64,000 nucleotides of DNA from Squalus acanthias. Lineage: Eukaryota. Within the stretch, counting starts at the first letter, position 1, and the number at the start of each line of letters is the position of its first letter. Below are positions 5,696-50,539 of the stretch, one piece after another. The notes under the pieces are model-generated. The model was not told the DNA's origin. It searched no databases and worked only from the letters and a program-made list of their open reading frames with translations. Position numbers and translations under genes: made by a program. The DNA lies in assembly GCA_030390025.1 (NCBI GenBank), contig CM059432.1, positions 14,758,001 to 14,822,000 of the forward strand. Reading direction: 5' to 3'.

Positions 5696-5985
5696 CTCTA
5701 TCAACATCCTGCTCTGAACCTCCTTCTCCTATTCCTCCTCTATACCTCCTTCTCCTATTCCTCCTCTATCAACATCCTTTTCTGAACCTCCTTCTCCTAT
5801 TCCTCCTCTATACCTCCTTCTCCTATTCCTCCTCTATCAACATCCTTCTCTGAACCTCCTTCTCCTATTCCTCCTCTATACCTCCTTCTCCTATTCCTCC
5901 TCTATCAACATCCTTCTCTGAACCTCCTTCTCCTATTCCTCCTCTATCAACATCCTTTTCTGAACCTCCTTCTCCTATTCCTCCT
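5696..5985. repeat. Pyrimidine-rich higher-order minisatellite; 68-bp unit = 16-bp + 2 x 26-bp
   Basis: caacatcc recurs at 5702, 5770, 5838, 5906 and 5948; 26-mer acctccttctcctattcctcctctat. Confidence 0.95.
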
Positions 5986-7650: not shown

Positions 7651-7978
7651 GAATAATTTTGTAAAGATTTTTTTTCTAATTTCCTGACTCATGATGAGAT
7701 GCAGTTCCACAGGAATCTGCCTCTCGCCAGTACCTCATAGTGTAGCTTGAGTAACCACTGTCAGCAGGCGAGGCATACGGGATACTTTTCTCATACTTTT
7801 CTTTATTAGCCGAGAATTTAAGAGATAATATAATAGAATATAAGAGCAGGGAGGTTATGCTTGAACTGTATAAAACACTAGTTAGGCCTCAGCTAGAGTA
7901 CTGTGTACAGTTCTGGTCACCACATTACAGGAAGGATATGATCACACTAGAGAGGGTACAGAGGAGATTTACGAGGAT

Positions 7979-8080
7979 CAATAGCAAACGAAGGGTTCGA
8001 CCCGAAACGTTGACTCTGTTTCTCTCTCCTCGATGCTGCCTGACCTGCTGAGTGTTTGCAGCACTTTCTGTTGTTATTTC
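7979..8080 (+). mobile_element. 102-bp Penelope-like element remnant with 14-bp TSD
   Basis: agatttacgaggat duplicated at 7965-7978 and 8081-8094. The insert is homologous to the right arm of the 49805-50008 insert. Confidence 0.75.
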
Positions 8081-8509
8081 AGATTTACGAGGATGTTGGC
8101 AGGACTGGGGAATTTTAGCTATGAGGAAAGATTGGATAGGCTGGGGTTGTTTTCTTTGGAACAGAGGAGGCTGAGGGGAGACTTAATTGAGGTGTATAAA
8201 ATTATGAAGGGCCTCGATAGAGTGGATAGGAAGGACCTGTTTCCCTTAGTAGAGAGATCAATAACCAGGGGGCATAGATTTAAAGTAATTGGTAGAAGGA
8301 TTAGAGGGGAGTTAAGGAGAATTTTTTTCACCTAGAGGGTGGTCGGAGTTCTGGAACTCACCGCCTGAAGGGTGGTAGAGGCAGAAACCCTCATTGCATT
8401 TAAAAAGTACTTGGATATGCACTTGGAGTGCGGTAACCTACAGGGCTACAGACCAAGAGCTGGAAAGTGGGATTAGGCTGGATAGCTCTTTTTCGGCTGG
8501 TGCGGACAC

Positions 8510-10236: not shown

Positions 10237-11007
10237 GGGCCAAAAATTCGGCACTTGCCGGGTGAGTACGCGCTGTGTACTCACCCGTAAGGCGTCCTGA
10301 AGTGCCAGTTTCCTGCATGCACTGCACTGCGCATGTGCGGGAAACCGGAACTTCCGGTCTGGTGAAGGGAACGGTTCATAGGTGAACCGCGTGCGCGGTA
10401 GAGGCTGCGCGCACGCAGCAAACTTCGTTTTTTTTTCAGGTTTCTACGGGAGGGTAAGTATTGAAGAACCTGCGCTTTTAAAAAGGAGGCGCAGGACCCG
10501 TTTTCAACAGGGTAAGTGGTTAATTAATTATAATTTAAAATTTTTTTCAACAGGTTTATCTTTTTTAGATACTTTAAAGAAAGGTAAGTTTATTTTTAGC
10601 ACTGTTAAAAAGCATTTTAATTTTTTCAAAAATTTAAATTTTTGTTTAAAGTAGTTAATTTATTTAACTTATAGTTATTTTATAAATGTGATGGTTTTTT
10701 AAAAATTTATTTTAAGTTTAGCTGTTCTTTTGGGGTCGATTTCAATTCATAGATTTGACAGGTCTTCCTGTCAAATCTATGAATGAAAGATGGTCTGTTG
10801 CCATTGGCTCTCCATGGCCCACGTGATCCCAGGGGACGCATCGCACTAACTACGCCCCTGGGACACGCAAGCACTGCGCGCCGGCACTTGGAGCAGGCCC
10901 AGGAGCTGAAGTTCCCGTGGGCCCAGAGGTCAAAGGCAGGCGCGGTAGGTAAGTGCGCGCGCGATCCTTACCCCCGCGGCAAGGCCGGAGAGGCGAATTT
11001 CAGGGCC
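10237..11007. mobile_element. PIF/Harbinger-type MITE
   Basis: Termini gggccaaaaattcg and cgaatttcagggcc; GC-rich arms around an AT-rich centre; flanks AAT/ATT (imperfect TSD). Confidence 0.7.
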
Positions 11008-14925: not shown

Positions 14926-15207
14926 AAGAGAGAGACTATCAAATAAAGTTTTCAAGTTCCAATATCAGCCAACCAGAAATACTGGACTACTGGAATCTGG
15001 GTCTTTGCTTGCAGGGCTATTGGGAAAGAGCAGGGGAGTGGTATTAATTGGATAGCTCTTTCAAAGAGCCGGCACAGGTATGATGGACTGAATGGCCTCC
15101 TTCTGTACTGTATGACTCTTGATTCTTGTAATAGTCTAGCATTTCTGTTTGGCTGATATTTTGACAAAGTTGATAAATGTAGGTGAGATATTTAGATTCT
15201 CAGTTAC

Positions 15208-22772: not shown

Positions 22773-23661
22773 GGCCTGATTTTAACTCAGGGCGAGAGTG
22801 CAAAGCGCGGGGGCCACAGTGGGACGGAAGTGCCCATGTTAGCATGAGGCCCAGGCCATTTTAACTCCAGGGCCTCATTTGAATGTGGGAATGTTGACTC
22901 CCACCCGAAAGTGGCGAGAAAGACGGGGAGGCCGTAGCCAGGGATCCAAGGGAACGTCCCCTGACATTAATGTAAGTGGTAAGGCGGGGTCCGATAGGAA
23001 ACACGGTCGGGGGAGGGAGAAGGAAGTCCAGGGCACTGGAGGCCTAAGGTGTTCTTGTGGGGCCCGGAGGAACACTCCTGCTTCTCCTGGCCCCACAAGG
23101 AAACTTTAAGAAAAATAAACCTTGCTTGGGCCTTTTCTGGCCACGGTCCTTCCTGTTGCCAGGTCTCAGTGGTGGGACCAGCACTGGGAGTCGCAGCCAT
23201 GATCCAGTGTTAAAATCGCGCCGGTGTCTGAATGATCTCATCCAGACCCTGACATTTAAATATCAATGAGGCCCCTGCCTGACTGTGGTGGGCGCCTGGC
23301 CCAAGTTACAAAATGGTTAAAACAGCGGCAGAAGGGAATGGTGTGATAAGCACCCGAATGCGATTTTAACTCCCTGGACTCACCGGGCTGGATTTTGATA
23401 CTGGGGCGGGTTGGGGTCGTGTCATCTGCATTTCGTGTTATCCACCCGCCTGCAATTGGATGTGGGAGATTGATGCAATTTTCACTTAATTGGGCAATTG
23501 AGTTCCAGCATGTGGGAACCCATGAACCAATTAGTGGTTTCAGTCTGAAAGTCGCCTCTGATGATGTCATCATTGCAGGTCAGAGACTGCCTGGTCTCAG
23601 AGATTGCCTGGCCTTTGCTGTGAGAAGACCTGGATGCAAAATGAGCAGCATCTCAGAGACA

Positions 23662-23697
<36 letters not shown>

Positions 23698-24205
23698 AAA
23701 AAACAGAGAGAGAGAGAATTTTTTTTGCAACCAAGTCCTCCCAGGCAGTCTCTGAAGACATTCAATGCAGCAGCATCAGAGGCGACTTTCAGACCTCATA
23801 CTACTACTACCTTCATCACATCTCCGTTGTAATAGTGGACCTGCAGCTGATAGTCAGCTATCCACTTGTGCTCCCGCCAGGTTTCACTGGCGTGTTTCAC
23901 ATCAGGCGTACTTCACGTCGGAAAAGGGTTAAACTAGCTAAAATGTTTCAAAATGGCATTACAGAGCTAATTTAGGGCTTGTTAAGGGCTTTAATGGCCT
24001 CTCCTGCCTCTTGGAGGCGGGACGGAGTCGGGAACCCCGCGACCGATTTTGTCAAAATTGCGTGGAGGCGGAATGGAGTCGGGATGGGGTCGGGACCCCT
24101 GAATCTGCAACTTTAACCCCCCACACGCCTCCAAACCTGACTCCACGGGTCATTGAAAATCCAGCCCACCAGTTCTGCTGAGCAGGAAGGGTTAAAATCG
24201 GAGGT
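22773..24205. mobile_element. Harbinger-type MITE (outer)
   Basis: Termini ggcctgattttaactc and gggttaaaatcggaggt; interrupts the L2 3' region. Confidence 0.65.
23385..24167. mobile_element. Harbinger-type MITE nested in a MITE
   Basis: TIR gggctggatttt / aaaatccagccc; TSD ACC at 23382-23384 and 24168-24170; internal (GA)n-like tract. Confidence 0.88.
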
Positions 24206-28146: not shown

Positions 28147-31100
28147 ACACTAGTTAGGCCACAGCTAGAGTACTGCATACAGTTCTGGTCATCACATTAC
28201 AGGAAAGATGTGATCGCACTAGAGAGGGTACAGAGGAGATTTACGAGGATGTTGCCAGGACTGGAGAATTTTAGCTATGAGGAAAGATTGGATAGGCTTG
28301 TGTTGTTTTCTTTGGAACAGAGGAGGCCGAGGGGAGACTTAATTGAAGTGTATAAAATTATGAGGGGTCTAGATAGAGTGGATAGGAAGGACCTATTTCC
28401 CTTAGCAGAGATGTCAATAACCAGGGGGCATATATTTAAAGTAATTGGTAGAAAGATTACAGGATATAGAGGATATATAGGATTATAGGATATATAGGAT
28501 ATAGAGGAAAAAACAAGTCCGCCTGGAAGGCAGAGCAAATATGTAACGGCACAAGGGAGTATGGCAAGGCTGGATGGCATTTATATTAATGCAAGGAGTC
28601 TTGCGAGTAAGGCAGATGAATTGAAGGTGTTGATGAACACATGGGAGTATGATATTGTTGCTATCACAGAGACATGGTTCAGGGAGGGGCAGGACTGGCA
28701 GCTCAATATTCCGGGGTATAGAATCTTCAGGCGAGACAGAGGGGGGTGTAAAAGAGGAGGGGGTGTCGCAATATTAATCAAGGAGTCAATTACTGCTGTA
28801 AGGAGGGATGATATCTTAGCAGGTTCCTCTAATGAGGCCATATGGGTAGAACTTAAAAACAAAAAGGGGGCAAGCACTTTGCTGGGAGTGTACTATAGGC
28901 CCCCAAACAGTCAGGGGGAGATAGAGGAACAGATATGTAGGCAAATCTCAGAGATGTGTAGAAATAATAGGGTAATAATAGTAGGGGATTTCAACTTCCC
29001 CAGTATTAACTGGGATAGTCAGAGTGTGAAAGGCTTGGAGGGTGCGGAATTCTTAAAGTGCATCCAGGAGAGCTTTGTGAGCCAGCATGTAGAAAGTCCT
29101 ACAAGAAAGGGGGTGGTACTGGACCTAATTCTAGGGAATGTAGCCGGGCAAGTGGTAGAAGTGTCAGTAGGAGAGCATTTTGGTGACAGTGACCATAATT
29201 CGGTGAGATTTAAGGTAGTCATGGAAAAGGACAAAGATGGACCGGAAATAAAGGTTCTAAATTGGGGGAAGGCCGATTTTAATATGATAAGGCAGGATCT
29301 GGCCAAAGTGGATTGGGATCAGCTACTTGTAGGAAAATCCACATCAGAGCAGTGGGAGTCTTTCAGAAAGGAAATAGAGAGAGTACATCGGCAACATGTT
29401 CCCGTAAAGGTCAAGGGTGGGACCAACAAGCCCAGGGAACCCTGGATGTCAAGGGATATACAGGAATGGATTAGGAAAAAAAGGGAGGCTTTTGGCAGAT
29501 ACAAAGGACTAAAAACAGTGGAAGCCCGAGAGGAGTATAGAAAGTGCAGGGGGGTACTTAAAAAAGAAATTAGGAGAGCGAAGAGAGGGCATGAAATAAC
29601 ACTGGCGGGCAAAATAAAGGAAAATCCCAAGGTGTTTTATAAGTATATTAAGGGCAAGAGGATAACCAGGGAAAGAGTAGGGCCCATTAGGGACCAAAAT
29701 GGCAATCTGTGTGTAGAGCCGGAAGATGTGGGTGAGGTTTTAAATGAATATTTTGCATCTATGTTCACTATGGAGAAGGACGATATAGACACAGAAATCA
29801 GGCAGGGGGATTGTGATATACTTGAACAAATTAGTATTGAGAGGGAGGAGGTACTAGCGGTTTTAGCGGGCTTAAAAGTGGATAAATCCCCAGGCCCAGA
29901 CGAGATGTATCCCAGGCTGCTGTGTGAGGCAAGGGAGGTGATTGCAGGGGCTCTGACACAAATTTTCAGAACCTCTCTGGCCACAGGGGAGGTGCCAGAG
30001 GACTGGAGAACAGCTAATGTAGTACCATTATTCAAGAAGGGTAGTAGGGATAAACTAGGGAATTACAGGCCAGTGAGCCTAACATCAGTGGTAGGGAAAT
30101 TATTGGAAAAAATTCTGAGGGACAGAATTAGTCTCCACTTGGAGAGGCAAGGATTGATCAAGGATAGTCAGCATGGCTTTGTCAGGGGGAGATCATGTCT
30201 AACCAATTTGATTGAATTTTTAGAGGGGGTGACTAGGTGTGTGGATGAGGGTAGTGCAGTTCATGTAGTCTACATGGACTTCAGTAAGGCTTTTGACAAA
30301 GTCCCACATGGGAGACTGGTTAAGAAGGTAAGAGCCCATGGGATCCAGGGCAATTTGGCACATTGGATCCAAAATTGGCTTAGTGGCAGGAGGCAGAGGG
30401 TGGTGGTCGAAGGTTGTTTTTGTGACTGGAAGCCTGTGTCCAGTGGTGTACCGCAGGGATCGGTGCTGGGTCCTTTGCTGTTTGTAGTGTACATTAATGA
30501 TTTAGATATGAATGTAGGAGGTATGATCAGTAAGTTCGCAGATGACACGAAAATTGGTGGAGTGGTAAATAGCGAGGAGGGAAGCCTCAGGCTACAGGAC
30601 GATATAGACGGGTTGGTCAGATGGGCAGAACAGTGGCAAATGGAATTTAACCCTGAAAAGTGTGAGGTGATGCATTTTGGGAGGACTAACAAGGCAAGGG
30701 AATACACAATGAATGGTAGAATCCTAGGAAGGACAGAGGATCAGAAGGACCTTGGTGTGCATGTACATAGATCCCTGAAGGCAGCAGGACAGGTAGATAA
30801 GGTGGTTAAAAAGGCATATGGGATACTTGCCTTCATTAGCCGAGGCATAGAATATAAGAGCAGGGAGGTTATGATGGAGCTGTACAAAACGCTAGTTAGG
30901 CCACAGCTGAAATACTGTGTGCAGTTCTGGTCGCCACACTATAGGAAGGATGTGATTGCATTGGAGAGGGTGCAGAGGAGATTCACCAGGATGTTACCTG
31001 GGCTGGAGCGCTTCAGCTATGAAGAGAGACTGAACAGGCTGGGGTTGTTTTCCTTAGAGCAGAGAAGGCTGAGGGGGGACCTGATTGAGGTGTACAAAAT

Positions 31101-31700
31101 TATGAGGGGCATAGATAGGGTAGATAGAAAGGAACTTTTCCCCTTAGTAGAGGGCTCAATAACCAGGGGGCATAGCTTCAAGGTAAGGGGCAGGAGGTTT
31201 AGAGGGGATTTGAGGAAAAACTTTTTCACCCAGAGGGTGGTTGGAATCTGGAACTCACTGCCTGAAAGGGTGGTAGAGGCAGGAACCCTCACAACATTCA
31301 AGAAGCATTTAGATGAGCACTTGAATCGCCATAGCACACAAGGCTACGGACCAAGTGCTGGAAAATGGGATTAGAATAGATAGGGCTTGATGGCCATCGT
31401 GGACACGATGGGCCGAAGGGCCTCTTTCTGTGCTGTATAAATCTATGACTCTATGATTAGAGGGAAGTTGAGAAGAAATTTTTTCACCCAGAGGAACTCC
31501 CTGCCTGAAAGGGTGGTAGAGGCAGAAACCACTCATCACATTTAAAAAGTACTCAGATATGCACTTTAAGTGCCGTAACCTACAAGGCTATGGATCAAGA
31601 GCTGGAAAGTGGGATTGGACTGGATAGCTCTTTTTCGGCCAGCACAGACACAATGGGCCGAATGGCCTCCTTCTGTGGCGTAAATTTCTATGATTCTATG
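28147..31700 (+). mobile_element. Older CR1 3' fragment (28147-28459 and 31455-31700) hosting a young CR1
   Basis: gtaattggtagaaagatta continues as gattagagggaagttgag after the insert. Confidence 0.88.
28561..31374 (+). CDS. Uninterrupted CR1 LINE ORF2, APE endonuclease plus reverse transcriptase, 937 aa (element about 28508-31454; ORF1 absent)
   Basis: EN motifs NARSL, ITETW, YRPP, GDFN, SDH; RT motifs YRPVSL, QHGF, DFSKAFD, PQGSVLGP, FADD; 3' UTR with (ctatgact) tail. Confidence 0.96.
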   Translation: MARLDGIYINARSLASKADELKVLMNTWEYDIVAITETWFREGQDWQLNIPGYRIFRRDRGGCKRGGGVAILIKESITAVRRDDILAGSSNEAIWVELKNKKGASTLLGVYYRPPNSQGEIEEQICRQISEMCRNNRVIIVGDFNFPSINWDSQSVKGLEGAEFLKCIQESFVSQHVESPTRKGVVLDLILGNVAGQVVEVSVGEHFGDSDHNSVRFKVVMEKDKDGPEIKVLNWGKADFNMIRQDLAKVDWDQLLVGKSTSEQWESFRKEIERVHRQHVPVKVKGGTNKPREPWMSRDIQEWIRKKREAFGRYKGLKTVEAREEYRKCRGVLKKEIRRAKRGHEITLAGKIKENPKVFYKYIKGKRITRERVGPIRDQNGNLCVEPEDVGEVLNEYFASMFTMEKDDIDTEIRQGDCDILEQISIEREEVLAVLAGLKVDKSPGPDEMYPRLLCEAREVIAGALTQIFRTSLATGEVPEDWRTANVVPLFKKGSRDKLGNYRPVSLTSVVGKLLEKILRDRISLHLERQGLIKDSQHGFVRGRSCLTNLIEFLEGVTRCVDEGSAVHVVYMDFSKAFDKVPHGRLVKKVRAHGIQGNLAHWIQNWLSGRRQRVVVEGCFCDWKPVSSGVPQGSVLGPLLFVVYINDLDMNVGGMISKFADDTKIGGVVNSEEGSLRLQDDIDGLVRWAEQWQMEFNPEKCEVMHFGRTNKAREYTMNGRILGRTEDQKDLGVHVHRSLKAAGQVDKVVKKAYGILAFISRGIEYKSREVMMELYKTLVRPQLKYCVQFWSPHYRKDVIALERVQRRFTRMLPGLERFSYEERLNRLGLFSLEQRRLRGDLIEVYKIMRGIDRVDRKELFPLVEGSITRGHSFKVRGRRFRGDLRKNFFTQRVVGIWNSLPERVVEAGTLTTFKKHLDEHLNRHSTQGYGPSAGKWD

Positions 31701-34703: not shown

Positions 34704-37700
34704 GAACATAAGAACATAAGAAAATAAGGCCCCTCGAGCCTGCTCCGCCATTCAATAAGATCATGGCTGATCTGATCTTGGCCTCAACTCCACTTTTCTG
34801 CCTGTTCCCCATAACCCTTGACCCCCCTGTAGTTCAAAAATCTGTCTATCTCAGCCTTGAATATATTCAATGTCTCAGCCTCCACAGCTCTCTGGGGTAG
34901 AGAATTCCAAAGATTCACGACCCTCTGAGAGAAAAAATTCCTCTTCATCTCCGTCTTAAATGGACGACCCCTTATTCTGAAACTATGCCCCCTAGTTCTA
35001 GATTCCCCCACGAGGGGAAACATCCTCTCAGCACCTACCCTGTCAAGCCCTCTCAGAATCTTATATGTTTCAATAAGATCACCTCTCATTCTTCTAAACT
35101 CCAATGAGTAAAGGCCCAACCTGCTCAACCTTTCCTCATAAGACAACACCTTCATCCCAGGAATCAACCTAGTGAACCTTCTCTGAACTGCCTCCAATGC
35201 AAGTATATCCTTCCTTAAAAAAGGAGACCAAAACTGTACGCAGTACTCCAGGTGTAGCAAGACTTTCCTACTTTTATACTCCATCCCCCTTGCAATACAG
35301 GCCAACATTCCATTGCCTCCCTAATTACTTGCTGTACCTGCATGCTAACTTTGTGTTTCATGTACGAGGACACCCAGATCCCTCTGTACCGCAGCATTCT
35401 GTAGTCTCTCTCCATTTAAATAATATTTTGCTTTTCTATTCTTCCTACCAAAGTGGATAACTTCACATTTTCCCACATTATACTCCATCTGCCAAATTTT
35501 TGCCCACTCACTTAACCTTGGGGGTGATTTTGCCAATGGGGAGCTTTTGGAGGCGGGACTCCCACTTGTCAAGTTTCAGTCCCGCCTCCATCAACTTCTG
35601 GCCAACCCACGCTATTTTCCCTTGATTGACCTTGTTAAGCCCGCCCAGCGTGCTGAGCAGGCCAATTAAGGGAAAGCCGGTTGCAGAGAACGTCAACGTA
35701 TGATGTTTCATCTGTCAAAATTGTCATCGTTTCACAGCTCTGTGAAGCTGTCAAACAGTGACATTCTCTGTAGTTTGATGAGGTCTTGAATTCAAGACCT
35801 CATCAAACCTCTTTCTTTTGCAGAAATTAGATGGTTGTTGCATTGGAGAATGCAACGGCCATCTGTCATCTCTGCCGCGGAGGTGTGAGACTCTCCGCAT
35901 ACCCACCGACTGAAGCCTGCAGGAAGAAACAAAGGTAAGTACACTTTTTCTAACACTTTGCACTTACCTCAGATACTCACCTCTCCACACTTGCACCCAT
36001 CACTCACCTCCACAGCGCACTTTTGGACCCCTCCGACCCCCGCAGACCCCTTACTTGCCTCGCTGACCTGGCGGGTTTCGGAGCCTTCGGGAAGCCCGCA
36101 CTTGAGGGCAAAAAGGGGATAATCCTATTTTCTGTCTGTTCACTACCTGTTAACAGGCAGTTAATTGGCTTTAATCCCTTCCCGCCTCCAAGGAGACGGG
36201 ACCCGGCGCGGGACGGCTACTCGCCTCCTGGCAAGATGGCATGGAGGCGGGTTGGGCACCAGCCCCCAAATTCTGCCATTTTCCCGGCAGTCCCGCCTCC
36301 AAACCCGCCTCCCCAGGGCTGGCAAAATCGCCCCCTTTGTGTCCTCCTCACAACTTGCTTTCTCACTTATCTTTGTATCCTCAGCAAATTTGGCTACAGT
36401 ACACTCGGTCCCTTCATCCAAGTCATTAATATAGATTGGAAATAGTTGAGGTCCCAGCGCTGATCCCTGTGGCACCCCACTAGTTACAGTTTGCCAACCT
36501 GAAAATGACCATTTATCCCGACTCTCTGTTTTCTGTTAGTTAGCCAATCCTCTATCCATGCTAATATATTACCCCCAATACCATGAGCTCTTATCTTGTG
36601 CAGTAACCTTTTATGTGGCACCTTATCAAATGCCTTTTAGAAATCCAAATACGCGACATCTACTGGTTCTCCTTTATCCACCCTGCTCGTTACATCCTCA
36701 AAGAACTCAATAAATTTGTCAAACACGATTTCCCTTTCATAAAACGATGTTGACTCTGCTTGATTGTATTATGATTTTCTAAATGTTCTGCTACTACTTC
36801 CTTAATAATGGATTCCAGCATTTTCCCAATGACAGATGTTAGGCTAACTGGCCTCTAGTTTCCTGCATTCTGATTCCCTCCTTTCTTGAATATGGGCTGG
36901 GACATTTCCGGAGTCTAGGGAATTTTGGAAGATTACAACCAATGCATCCACTATCCCTGCAGCCACTTCTTTTAAGACCCTAGGATGCAGGCCATCAGGT
37001 CCACGGGGAGTTTTCAGCCTTCAGTCCCATTAGTTTGCCTAGTACTTTTTCTCTAGCGATAGTGATTGTTTTATGTTCCTCCCTCCCTTTTGCCCCTTGA
37101 TTTTCCACTATTATTGGGATGCTTTTAGTGTCTTCTACCATGAAGACAGATACAAAATATTTGTTCAAAGTCTCTGCCATTTCCTTGTTTCCCATTATTA
37201 ATTCCCCAGTCTCATCCTCTAAGGGACCAACATTTACTTTAGCTACTCTCTTCCTTTTTATATACTTGTAGAAGCTCTTACTGTCTGTCTTTATATTTCT
37301 TGCTGGTTTACTCTCATAATCTATTTTCTCCCTCTTTATTTTTTTTAGTCATCCTTTGCAAGTTTCTAAAAATTTCCCAATCTTCTGGCCTACCACTAAT
37401 TTTCACAACATTGTATGCCTTTTCTTTCAATTTGATACCCTCCTTAAATTCCTTAGTAAGCCATGGATAGTTCATCCTTCTCATAGAGTCTTTCTTTCTC
37501 ACTAGAATGTATCTTTGTTGAGAGTTATGAAATATCTCCTTAAACGTCTGCCACTGCTTATCTAATGTCTTACCTTTTAATCTATTTTCCCAGTCCACTT
37601 TAGCCAACTCTGTCTTCATACACTTGCATTTGCCTTTATTTAAGGTTAAGATACTAGTTTCAGACCCACGTTTCTCACTCTCAAACTGAATGTGAAATTC

Positions 37701-47710: not shown

Positions 47711-49804
47711 TTAAATTAACTGAAATTAAATTCCTCGGCTGCCGTGGTGAGATTTGAACTCACGTCCCTGGATCATTAGGCCAGGCCTCTGGATTACTAA
47801 CCCAGTGACATTACCACTATGCTACCGTTCCCAGAAAAAGGAGCTGAATTCCAGAGGTCATAGAGTCATAACATCACAGGAGGCTGCCATTCGGCCCATC
47901 GAGTCCGTGCCGGCTCTCTGCAGAGCAATCCAGTCAGTCCCATTCCCCCGCTCTATCCCCGTAGCCCTGCAAGTTTATTTCGCTCAAGTGCCTATCCAGT
48001 CTCCCCTTGAAAACATTGAGTGTGTCCGCTTCCACCACTTCCGTCAGCAGCGAGATAGAGTCAGGTAAGGTGAGAGTGACTGCCCTTGACATCAAGGCAG
48101 CATTTGACCGAGTCTGGCATCAAGGAACCGATGTCAAAAACTGAAGTCAATGGGAATCGGGGGGGAAATTCTCTACTGGATGGAGTCATACCTAGCACAA
48201 AGGAAGATGGTTGAAGATCAATTATCACAGCCCCAGGACATCGCTGCAGGAGTTCCTCAGGGCAGTGTCCTAGGCCCAACCATCTTCAGCTGCTTCATCA
48301 ATGACCTTCCCGCCAACATAAGGTCAGAAATGGGGATGTTTGCTGATGACTGCACAGTGTTCAGTGCCATTCACAACTCCTCAGATAATGAAGCAGTCCA
48401 TGCCCGCATGCAACAAGACCTGGACGACGTTCAGGCTTGGGCTGGTAAGTGGCAGGTAACATTCACGCCACACAAGTGCCAGGCAATGACTATCTCGAAC
48501 AAGCGAGATTCTAACCACCGCCCCTTGACATTCAACGGCATTACCATGGCCGAATCCCCCACCATCAACATCCTGGGGGTCACCATTGACCAGAAACTTA
48601 ACTGGACCAGCCACATAAATACTGTGGCAACAAGAGCAGGTCAGAGGCTAGGTATTCTGCGGCGAGTGTCTCACCTCCTGACTCCCCAAAGCCTTTCCAC
48701 CATCTACAAGGCACAAGTAAGGAGTGTGATGGAATACTCTCCACTTGCCTGGATGAGTGCAGCTCCAACAACACTCAAGATGCTTGACACCATCCAGGAC
48801 AAAGCAGCCCGCTTGATTGGCACCCCATCCACCACCTTAAACATTCACTCCCTCCACCACCTGCGTACCATGGCTGCAGTGTGTACCATCTACAAGATGC
48901 ACTGCAGCTGTAAGCATCAACGCAGGCCCCAAAGAGGTTTTTTTTGTATCGGACATTTTGAATGACTGTTACTGCTGATTTGACCAACTGCCTGTTTGGA
49001 GAAGATGGGAGGGGCCCAGGTGTTCGTGGACAGGAGATTCCAGCCAGGCCTACAAACTAATTATAGGAGAATGTCTGGGCGGACAGAATTCTCTGGGAAG
49101 ACAATGGGTCCGGGGAGATGACTCATACGGTCACAAGCACCTGGATGAGATAGCCCCGAAAGGCGGGAACCGGACAAAAGAGGGCCATTGTAAATTAATG
49201 GTAAGCCACTTAACCCAGGATCAGGTGAGTAGTGCGGCCCATCATCAGCCATTAACACCAGCACCTAGATGGGATAGCCCCGAAAGGCGGGAAACCAGAC
49301 AAAGAAGACAAAGAAGGGTGATTAAAAAGACATCACTGCAACTACACAAAGCGGAATGAACTTTTAGGATATAGAGAAGGCAGCTTTGCCATTTTTCTCT
49401 CTCTCTCTCGCTTGCTCTAAACCACCACGAGCGAAAAGAGCCTCACCTTGCTCTTCGACTGTAGGAACGAACCTTGAAACTGGGACTAGGATACTGCATC
49501 GGTGATACGGAACCAGGAGACACGCTCTACACAGGGAAGCAGCGAGCAAGAAACCGGACAATCGGGGTGAGCATTGTCCAAGCCCACGCATCCTTAAGAC
49601 CACCGGTACTGTGTGAGGGAGTGTTGTGTGTCCCAACCAAGCCAGAGGGGTTTAGTGGGGAGGTTTTGTGTGTATTATACAGTGTATGTTCCGGGGTTTG
49701 TGGAACAAGTCCATGTTATACTCTGTATAGCAACACAGTGTGATTTTAGGTGTCTTAACACGAGATAGGGGCCTGTTCGACGGGCCAAGTTGTATTGTTG
49801 TACT

Positions 49805-50008
49805 ACGATAGCAAAATACTGCGGATGCTGGAAATCCGAAATAACAACAGAAAACGCTGGAAAAACTCAGCAGGCCAGGCAACATCCGTGGAGAGAGAAT
49901 GAGAGTTAACGTTTCAGGTCGAGTTCCGACGAAGGGTTTCGACCTGAAACGTTAACTCTCTTTCTCTCTCCACGGATGTTGCCTGGCCTGCTGAGTTTTT
50001 CCAGCGTT
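49805..50008 (+). mobile_element. Palindromic Penelope-like mini-element with 15-bp TSD
   Basis: ttgtattgttgtact at 49790-49804 and 50009-50023; inverted arms 49851-49922 and 49939-50010. Confidence 0.8.
49921..49958 (+). ncRNA. Putative minimal type I hammerhead ribozyme motif (variant core)
   Basis: Stem I GAGUU/AACUC; core CCGACGA (consensus CUGANGA); stem II AGGGU-UUCG-ACCU; GAAA; palindromic ACGU in place of helix III. Confidence 0.6.
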
Positions 50009-50539
50009 TTGTATTGTTGTACTGTTTGTTTTATGCCACCAGGTATTTTACGTACTGGAAGCGGGTGTGTGTATTAACCTTATTAAACACCGTACGGTTG
50101 AGTCCGAAAAGCTTGTCTGTGTCCCAATCCTGTTCACTGAAATTCCTGGCGTATAGAACTAAGTAGGAGGGGTGATTCGAACCACCAAAGCAAACCACCT
50201 ACACAGCAACTCACCAAAGCTTCTTCGGCAGCACCTCCTAAACCTGTGACCTCCACCACCTAGAAGGACAAGAGCAGCAGGCGCATGGGAACACCACCAC
50301 CTCCAAGTTCCCCTCCAAGTCACATACCATCCTGATTTAGAAGTATATCGCCGATCCTTCATCGTCGCTGGGTCAAAATCCTGGAAGTCCCTCTCTAACA
50401 GCACTGTGGGAGTACCTTCACCACATGGATTGCAGCGGTTCAAAAAAGCGGCTCACCACCACCTTCTCAAGGGTAATTAGGGATGGGCAATAAATGCTGG
50501 CCTTGCCAGTGATGCCCACATCCCATAAACGAATTTTTA

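Follow-up and report, generated by a model that had tools for sequence, protein, structure and literature searches.

What is a 204-bp hairpin with a hammerhead ribozyme motif across its apex doing inside a repeat of Squalus acanthias, and how did it come to be there? The sequence-only reading took it for a tiny palindromic Penelope-like element (PLE) that might alternate between a long hairpin and a hammerhead fold. We followed up this proposal in the window, i.e., the whole 64,000-nucleotide stretch of DNA analysed, to which all coordinates below refer, and in public runs. Our reading, to which we assign a probability of roughly 0.88, is that the insert combines two strongly truncated copies of one end of a high-copy repeat, namely the end with the hammerhead and likely the pseudo-LTR (pLTR) of a Penelope-like element, and that the hairpin is a likely by-product of insertion and not a working RNA switch.

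Setting and anatomy of the insert

The window is repeat-rich vertebrate DNA in which LINE reverse-transcriptase (RT) frames, presumably of CR1/L2 type, dominate; a Pfam search of 97 of its 247 open reading frames returned four RVT_1 matches, two of which read as LINE-type, and no match to GIY-YIG. At the locus itself, the order of arrival is a LINE (RVT_1 on 48108-48962), then a TG...CA repeat of about 1076 bp that sits in the LINE's 3' end and whose ends suggest something like a solo LTR, and then the insert. The insertion interrupts a repeat that itself lies within a LINE, and the locus has no sign of conservation. Within the host repeat, an internal repeat occurs twice in nearly identical form, near 49141-49175 and 49262-49300. 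Elsewhere in the window, an uninterrupted 958-codon LINE frame (28498-31374) has endonuclease and RT motifs recognizable by eye and is apparently young, two perfect short inverted repeats have 18-nt arms 0 and 4 nt apart (35773-35808 and 10745-10784, respectively), two stretches are MITE-like, with inverted repeats of 24-29 nt about 140-200 nt apart (14961-15160 and 23543-23794), and a tandem repeat with a period of ~68 bp occupies about 5696-5980.

Four public runs (X1, X3, X4 and X21), whose species may differ from that of the window, were aligned on 49560-50260 at 80% likeness. X1, X3 and X4 each contributed 21,658-60,006 aligned contigs and X21 only 14 reads, which leaves the latter nearly uninformative, and none of the four runs spans this locus. 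Compared with the letters of three runs, the host repeat differs at about 14 of some 410 positions aligned. An empty site is represented by five X3 contigs, in a flank that is itself a repeat, that join 49789 to 50009 and thereby skip 219 bases, with 15 letters at the joint fitting either side. Since the skipped length is exactly the insert (49805-50008, 204 bp) plus 15, the identical 15-mers that bracket it are a true target-site duplication, just as had been proposed from the letters of the window.

Table 1. Features of the insert, its second copy and its host repeat in the window.
Feature	Position	Strand	Basis or remark
Second family copy	7965..8094	+	14-bp duplication 7965-7978/8081-8094; within a LINE
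Host repeat, TG...CA, ~1076 bp without the insert	48909..50203	.	4-bp duplication 48905-48908/50204-50207; repeat depth; loose end at 50204
Left copy of the 15-bp target-site duplication	49790..49804	.	Identical to 50009-50023; X3 empty site
Element tail, 28-34 nt between the distal and proximal 3' ends of the family	49805..49838	-	Inverted arm only
Remainder of the inverted element-end copy, 5'-truncated	49839..49922	-	Sequence comparison
Left hairpin arm, within the inverted copy	49851-49922	-	Contains the hammerhead 3' half only
Minimal type I hammerhead motif, U4C, G-U at 10.1-11.1	49921..49958	+	Consensus in the PMC4209133 supplement; descriptor scan
Sense 5'-truncated copy of the element end	49922..50008	+	Arm comparison; family sequence upstream of the motif
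Right hairpin arm	49939-50010	+	Arm comparison
Right copy of the target-site duplication	50009..50023	.	Identical to 49790-49804; X3 empty site

Structurally, the insert consists of two pieces of one element end placed head to head (Table 1). The sense piece runs from stem I of the hammerhead to 55 nt past the predicted cut, and the inverted piece begins 103 nt past that cut and runs back to stem II, with A49922 assignable to either (a 1-base overlap). The outermost base of stem I, G49921, is contributed by the inverted arm, which leaves the element itself with a stem I of 4 bp. Between them, the pieces form arms of 72 nt with one mismatch (49900/49961) around a 16-nt loop; the right arm reaches 2 nt into the target duplication, and 46 nt at the left (49805-49850), including the family tail, have no partner arm. 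The description of this structure as a near-perfect hairpin is well founded: the predicted folding energy of the insert is −151 kcal/mol (z = −21.6), none of 200 shuffles was equally stable, and the arm pair is the longest of the 21 inverted repeats listed in the window.

The insert has no reading frame, and the stub looks young: its duplications are identical, its arms differ by one mismatch, and it holds 13 CpG, with an observed/expected ratio of 1.1 vs 0.44 window-wide. The sense arm ends ~14 nt before the proximal end of the family, a gap that the target duplication nearly fills, with 9 of its 15 letters matching. Microhomology between target and RNA at the sense end was considered and is not claimed for these insertions (9/15 here and 6/14 in the second copy, permutation p ~0.10 and 0.09); for the first copy, the match stands at 0.8% against the window background and is not significant when letters are permuted with composition controlled. 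At the proximal 3' end (49836-49852, minus strand), a pyrimidine-rich run ends in CAG in many copies and in CGG here. Introns can occur in Penelope-like elements, and judging from its letters this run could be a splice acceptor look-alike, a resemblance that may be due to chance.

The second copy in the window is built along the same lines and has the same polarity. In its body (7979-8080), 10 nt of inverted tail (7979-7988) are followed by a sense piece (7988-8080) that starts inside the hammerhead core and reaches the proximal end of the family. The inverted piece does not overlap the sense piece, which rules out plain self-copying for this copy. Thus, in both window copies the tail stands on the inverted arm only, and in both an inverted 5'-truncated copy lies beside the 5' end.

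The family in public runs and the route to the hairpin

The insert belongs to a family with a very high copy number. Summed depth, which is not the same as copy number, amounts to 3-10 million over the arms and tail vs roughly 1,500-41,000 over the flanking repeat (X1, X3 and X4). Family ends cluster before 49804, 49810 and 49838 (138-559 contigs per row, among the rows listed), i.e., 103, 97 and 69 nt past the predicted cut, and give way to unrelated AT-rich flanks (agreement 0.34-0.45). The 28-34 nt between these clusters match the 30-40 bp Penelope tail, and such a tail on one end together with an adjoining inverted 5'-truncated copy is described as standard for PLE insertions (PMC8557442, PMC3846280). 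Taken jointly, the tail, the inversion, the duplication and the hammerhead make a Penelope-like origin likely, in line with the original view of a non-coding, Penelope-like retro-insertion, and the insert is likely a dead-end stub of a very abundant element of this kind.

The joints between arms speak to how such stubs form. Among the 15 joints listed (137 were found), in 12 the inverted arm runs into the hammerhead region, no two of them at the same place (1-3 contigs each, with short sides of 19-28 letters); the others are two empty-site joints and one flank deletion. Given these varied junctions, the palindrome is most likely made anew at each insertion and not multiplied as a unit.

As for the route to the hairpin, we lean slightly toward two-ended priming. 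The GIY-YIG/RT protein of an intact element elsewhere would cut an AT-rich site on both strands, 15 bp apart; one DNA end would prime at the distal of the two start sites on the RNA and yield the inverted arm with its tail, and the other would prime near the proximal start site and yield the sense arm without one. Both cDNAs would halt at the hammerhead and be joined there with the 1-base overlap. This route resembles L1 twin priming but differs from it in that the two primers are extended over one and the same stretch of RNA. One support is polarity: the apex loop has the sense orientation and the inverted arm alone bears the tail, so that neither arm by itself can have served as template for the other. 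To this are added the non-overlapping pieces of the second copy and the anole PAc protein, a predicted dimer that extends both target strands in vitro and whose element has two RT start sites bounding the tail, as described in PMC11167929.

Fold-back or template switching, in which a cDNA (or a self-primed antisense RNA) copies itself and an endonuclease trims one arm to leave the tail on one end, is a possible but doubtful route. It has precedents in the literature, in that Arkhipova et al. (PMC3846280) interpret palindromes at junctions as the outcome of self-priming on antisense templates and Craig et al. (PMC8557442) ascribe the tail to endonuclease resolution; at this locus, a palindrome, TCGA, does lie at the junction (49919-49922), and the arms are identical at 71 of 72 positions. 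The arms also have non-majority letters in common, such as the C at 49960 (G in 68-86% of depth), a pattern that fits one source element and arm-from-arm copying equally well. However, the loop-bearing strand starts without a tail, so self-copying needs an extra trimming step, and neither the second copy's inverted piece nor the both-strand extension by the anole protein suits this route. Tail side, loop polarity and junction overlap scored across thousands of stubs could separate two-ended priming from fold-back, and for this purpose the insert is a clean example of how Penelope-like elements form inverted ends and a one-sided tail, even if on its own, given how many stubs of this already known class exist, it matters little. 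In literature searches that covered sources outside subscription, no paper among the matches listed joined 'pLTR' with 'twin priming', Penelope with Chondrichthyes and palindromic retrotransposons gave no match, and Penelope with shark and hammerhead gave one review only.

It is improbable that the insert represents a palindromic, non-autonomous mini-element that resembles a retrozyme or MITE and has its 204 bp copied as a whole. Short, non-coding and young, with inverted arms, it does have the look of one, and non-autonomous repeats with hammerheads are known to have arisen from Penelope ends (bioRxiv 10.64898/2026.07.22.740005). Yet its junction occurs in no listed contig and the 12 listed junctions all differ, weak evidence given that hairpins assemble poorly from short reads; moreover, retrozymes are arranged head to tail, not head to head, and the inverted repeats here are not terminal, given the unpaired stretch at the left. 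The notion of a tiny palindromic element that spreads as a unit is not supported, since the junctions of other copies are different. Two narrower candidates were rejected on similar grounds, namely a non-LTR retrozyme (excluded by the single complete motif and the head-to-head arrangement) and a MITE or DNA transposon (arms not terminal, varying junctions, duplications of 15 and 14 bp).

The hammerhead motif and its competing fold

The apex reads as first described, with stem I at 49921-49925/49954-49958, the core at 49926-49933, stem II at 49934-49937/49942-49945, GAAA at 49946-49949, an ACGU palindrome at 49949-49952 and a predicted cut after 49953. It matches the published consensus (CUGANGAH - stem II - GAAAN palindrome NUH, from the PMC4209133 supplement) at every core position except for C in place of U4. 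A relaxed minimal-hammerhead descriptor, composed after the motif had been seen and accepting C or U at position 4, found this motif as its single match on both strands of the window; the rate in simulated 64-kb sequences was 0.025 matches per sequence, and none of 40 gave a match with both stems of at least 4 bp. Pattern scans found no match in viral contigs and none in prokaryote genomes, and the sole match in metagenomes (L001), an unrelated sequence that lacks the core and stem II, was set aside as chance.

Not every check was favourable. The covariance-model search suggested earlier gave no hammerhead match in Rfam at E-values up to 10 (11 matches over 3 kb and two over 61 nt), a failure that the missing helix III would probably account for. 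The matches over 3 kb are generic miRNA-type hairpins below their gathering scores, products of the long stem, and the two over 61 nt were dismissed as chance.

In stem II, three pair types occur at 10.1-11.1, namely G-U in the insert, G-C in its second copy and A-U in the majority loose-end strings of X1 and X3 (147 and 199 contigs, respectively, at agreement 0.52-0.54), and pair 10.4-11.4 is U-A here vs A-U in three X21 reads, a double change. Stem I had no double change in the two window copies and the loose ends of the runs. The covariation that stem II suggests is modest, drawn as it is from a few loose-end strings and not an alignment of copies.

The core position 4 (49927), at which U had been named as the consensus base, is U in 96% of depth in X3 and 98% in X4, so that most family copies keep it in two of three runs. 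In X1, only 47% of depth has U there, and among the rows listed the remainder has no letter other than C. C at this position may be a subfamily trait in X1; a few deep contigs could yield the same signal. A U4C change cuts in vitro activity considerably and still permits viroid infectivity (PMC3088659), and minimal hammerheads of this kind are reported in PMC4209133 to show no cleavage in vitro as single motifs and weak cleavage as dimers. The motif of the parent element would be a weak ribozyme, assisted by dimerization or by protein.

We tentatively raise one further idea, which we consider unlikely: U4C could be the mark not of decay but of a young subfamily that spreads with a crippled core, and the stubs could record two-ended priming from one RT start site per target strand, which would explain both the inverted pLTR and the one-sided tail. 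Were this so, the subfamily would supply natural evidence that inefficient ribozyme cleavage does not keep Penelope-like elements from spreading in vivo; provided that it is real, a U4C subfamily would amount to an in vivo test of whether spread requires the hammerhead.

From an energetic perspective, the motif competes poorly with the hairpin. With stems I and II forced and the core kept open, in an energy model that omits tertiary contacts, the hammerhead fold lies 38.2 kcal/mol above the ensemble for any RNA that starts at or before 49880 (P about 1e-27) and costs 28.7 kcal/mol in a nascent RNA that ends at 49958. Tertiary contacts cannot plausibly offset 30 kcal/mol. The cost falls to 8.9 kcal/mol if the RNA starts at 49917, with four extra upstream bases, and to 3.1 kcal/mol if it starts at 49921. 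For two isolated motifs, the active fold is again disfavoured under the same model without tertiary contacts (−9.5 vs −24.5 kcal/mol). These calculations predict that the hairpin is a trap that keeps the ribozyme unfolded, not one state of a switch, and that the motif in this copy, being single, U4C and masked by the hairpin, is inert. Thus the proposed regulatory RNA switching between the two folds, which can both be drawn and are mutually exclusive in sequence, is not supported and is very improbable: the active fold is 29-38 kcal/mol above the ensemble in any transcript with the left arm, that arm is transcribed first, the motif occurs once, has no helix III and carries U4C, minimal motifs on their own gave no cleavage in vitro (PMC4209133), and the locus, as described above, has no sign of conservation.

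Comparison with known systems

The motif has its closest counterparts in the minimal hammerheads that Cervera and De la Pena described in 2014 from pseudo-LTRs of metazoan PLEs (PMC4209133). In common with these, it has the CUGANGAH core pattern, an extra base before stem II, no helix III and an ACGU palindrome, and the published set likewise includes stems I of 4-5 bp, widespread single truncated copies and some opposite-strand pairs. This copy differs in having C at position 4 and G-U at 10.1-11.1, although non-G-C pairs also occur in the published alignment, and its stem II of 4-5 bp is at the short end of the range; a term search of supplement file 2 of that paper gave no shark entry.

The layout also has known relatives. 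A head-to-head, tailed arrangement of PLE copies is already described in print, and the complex insertions of EN+ PLEs (PMC3846280, PMC8557442) have in common with ours the head-to-head order, a tail at one end, a target duplication, strong 5' truncation and an AT-rich target. Unlike in those insertions, no reading frame lies between the pieces here, and the duplications are 14-15 bp vs 8-10 bp in the rotifer examples of the same papers.

Cervera and De la Pena reportedly described, in 2020, non-LTR retrozymes as hammerhead repeats related to PLE pseudo-LTRs. The non-LTR retrozymes of Li, Clavereau and Pollet 2026 (bioRxiv 10.64898/2026.07.22.740005), which include one cartilaginous fish, are similarly short, non-coding repeats with type I hammerheads and related to PLE pseudo-LTRs. 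Whereas these form head-to-tail arrays with one hammerhead per unit, the insert is a single head-to-head stub.

For the ends and the proposed mechanism, the best parallel is PAc, an element of the Poseidon clade from Anolis carolinensis (Frangieh et al. 2024, PMC11167929). Both PAc and this family have two 3' ends bounding a tail ~70-100 nt past the hammerhead, and both have AT-rich targets. The start codon of PAc lies at the junction of hammerhead core and stem II, whereas the nearest core position here reads ACG. In that system, as described in the same paper, the hammerhead cleaved only with the element's protein, and cleavage was dispensable for insertion in vitro.
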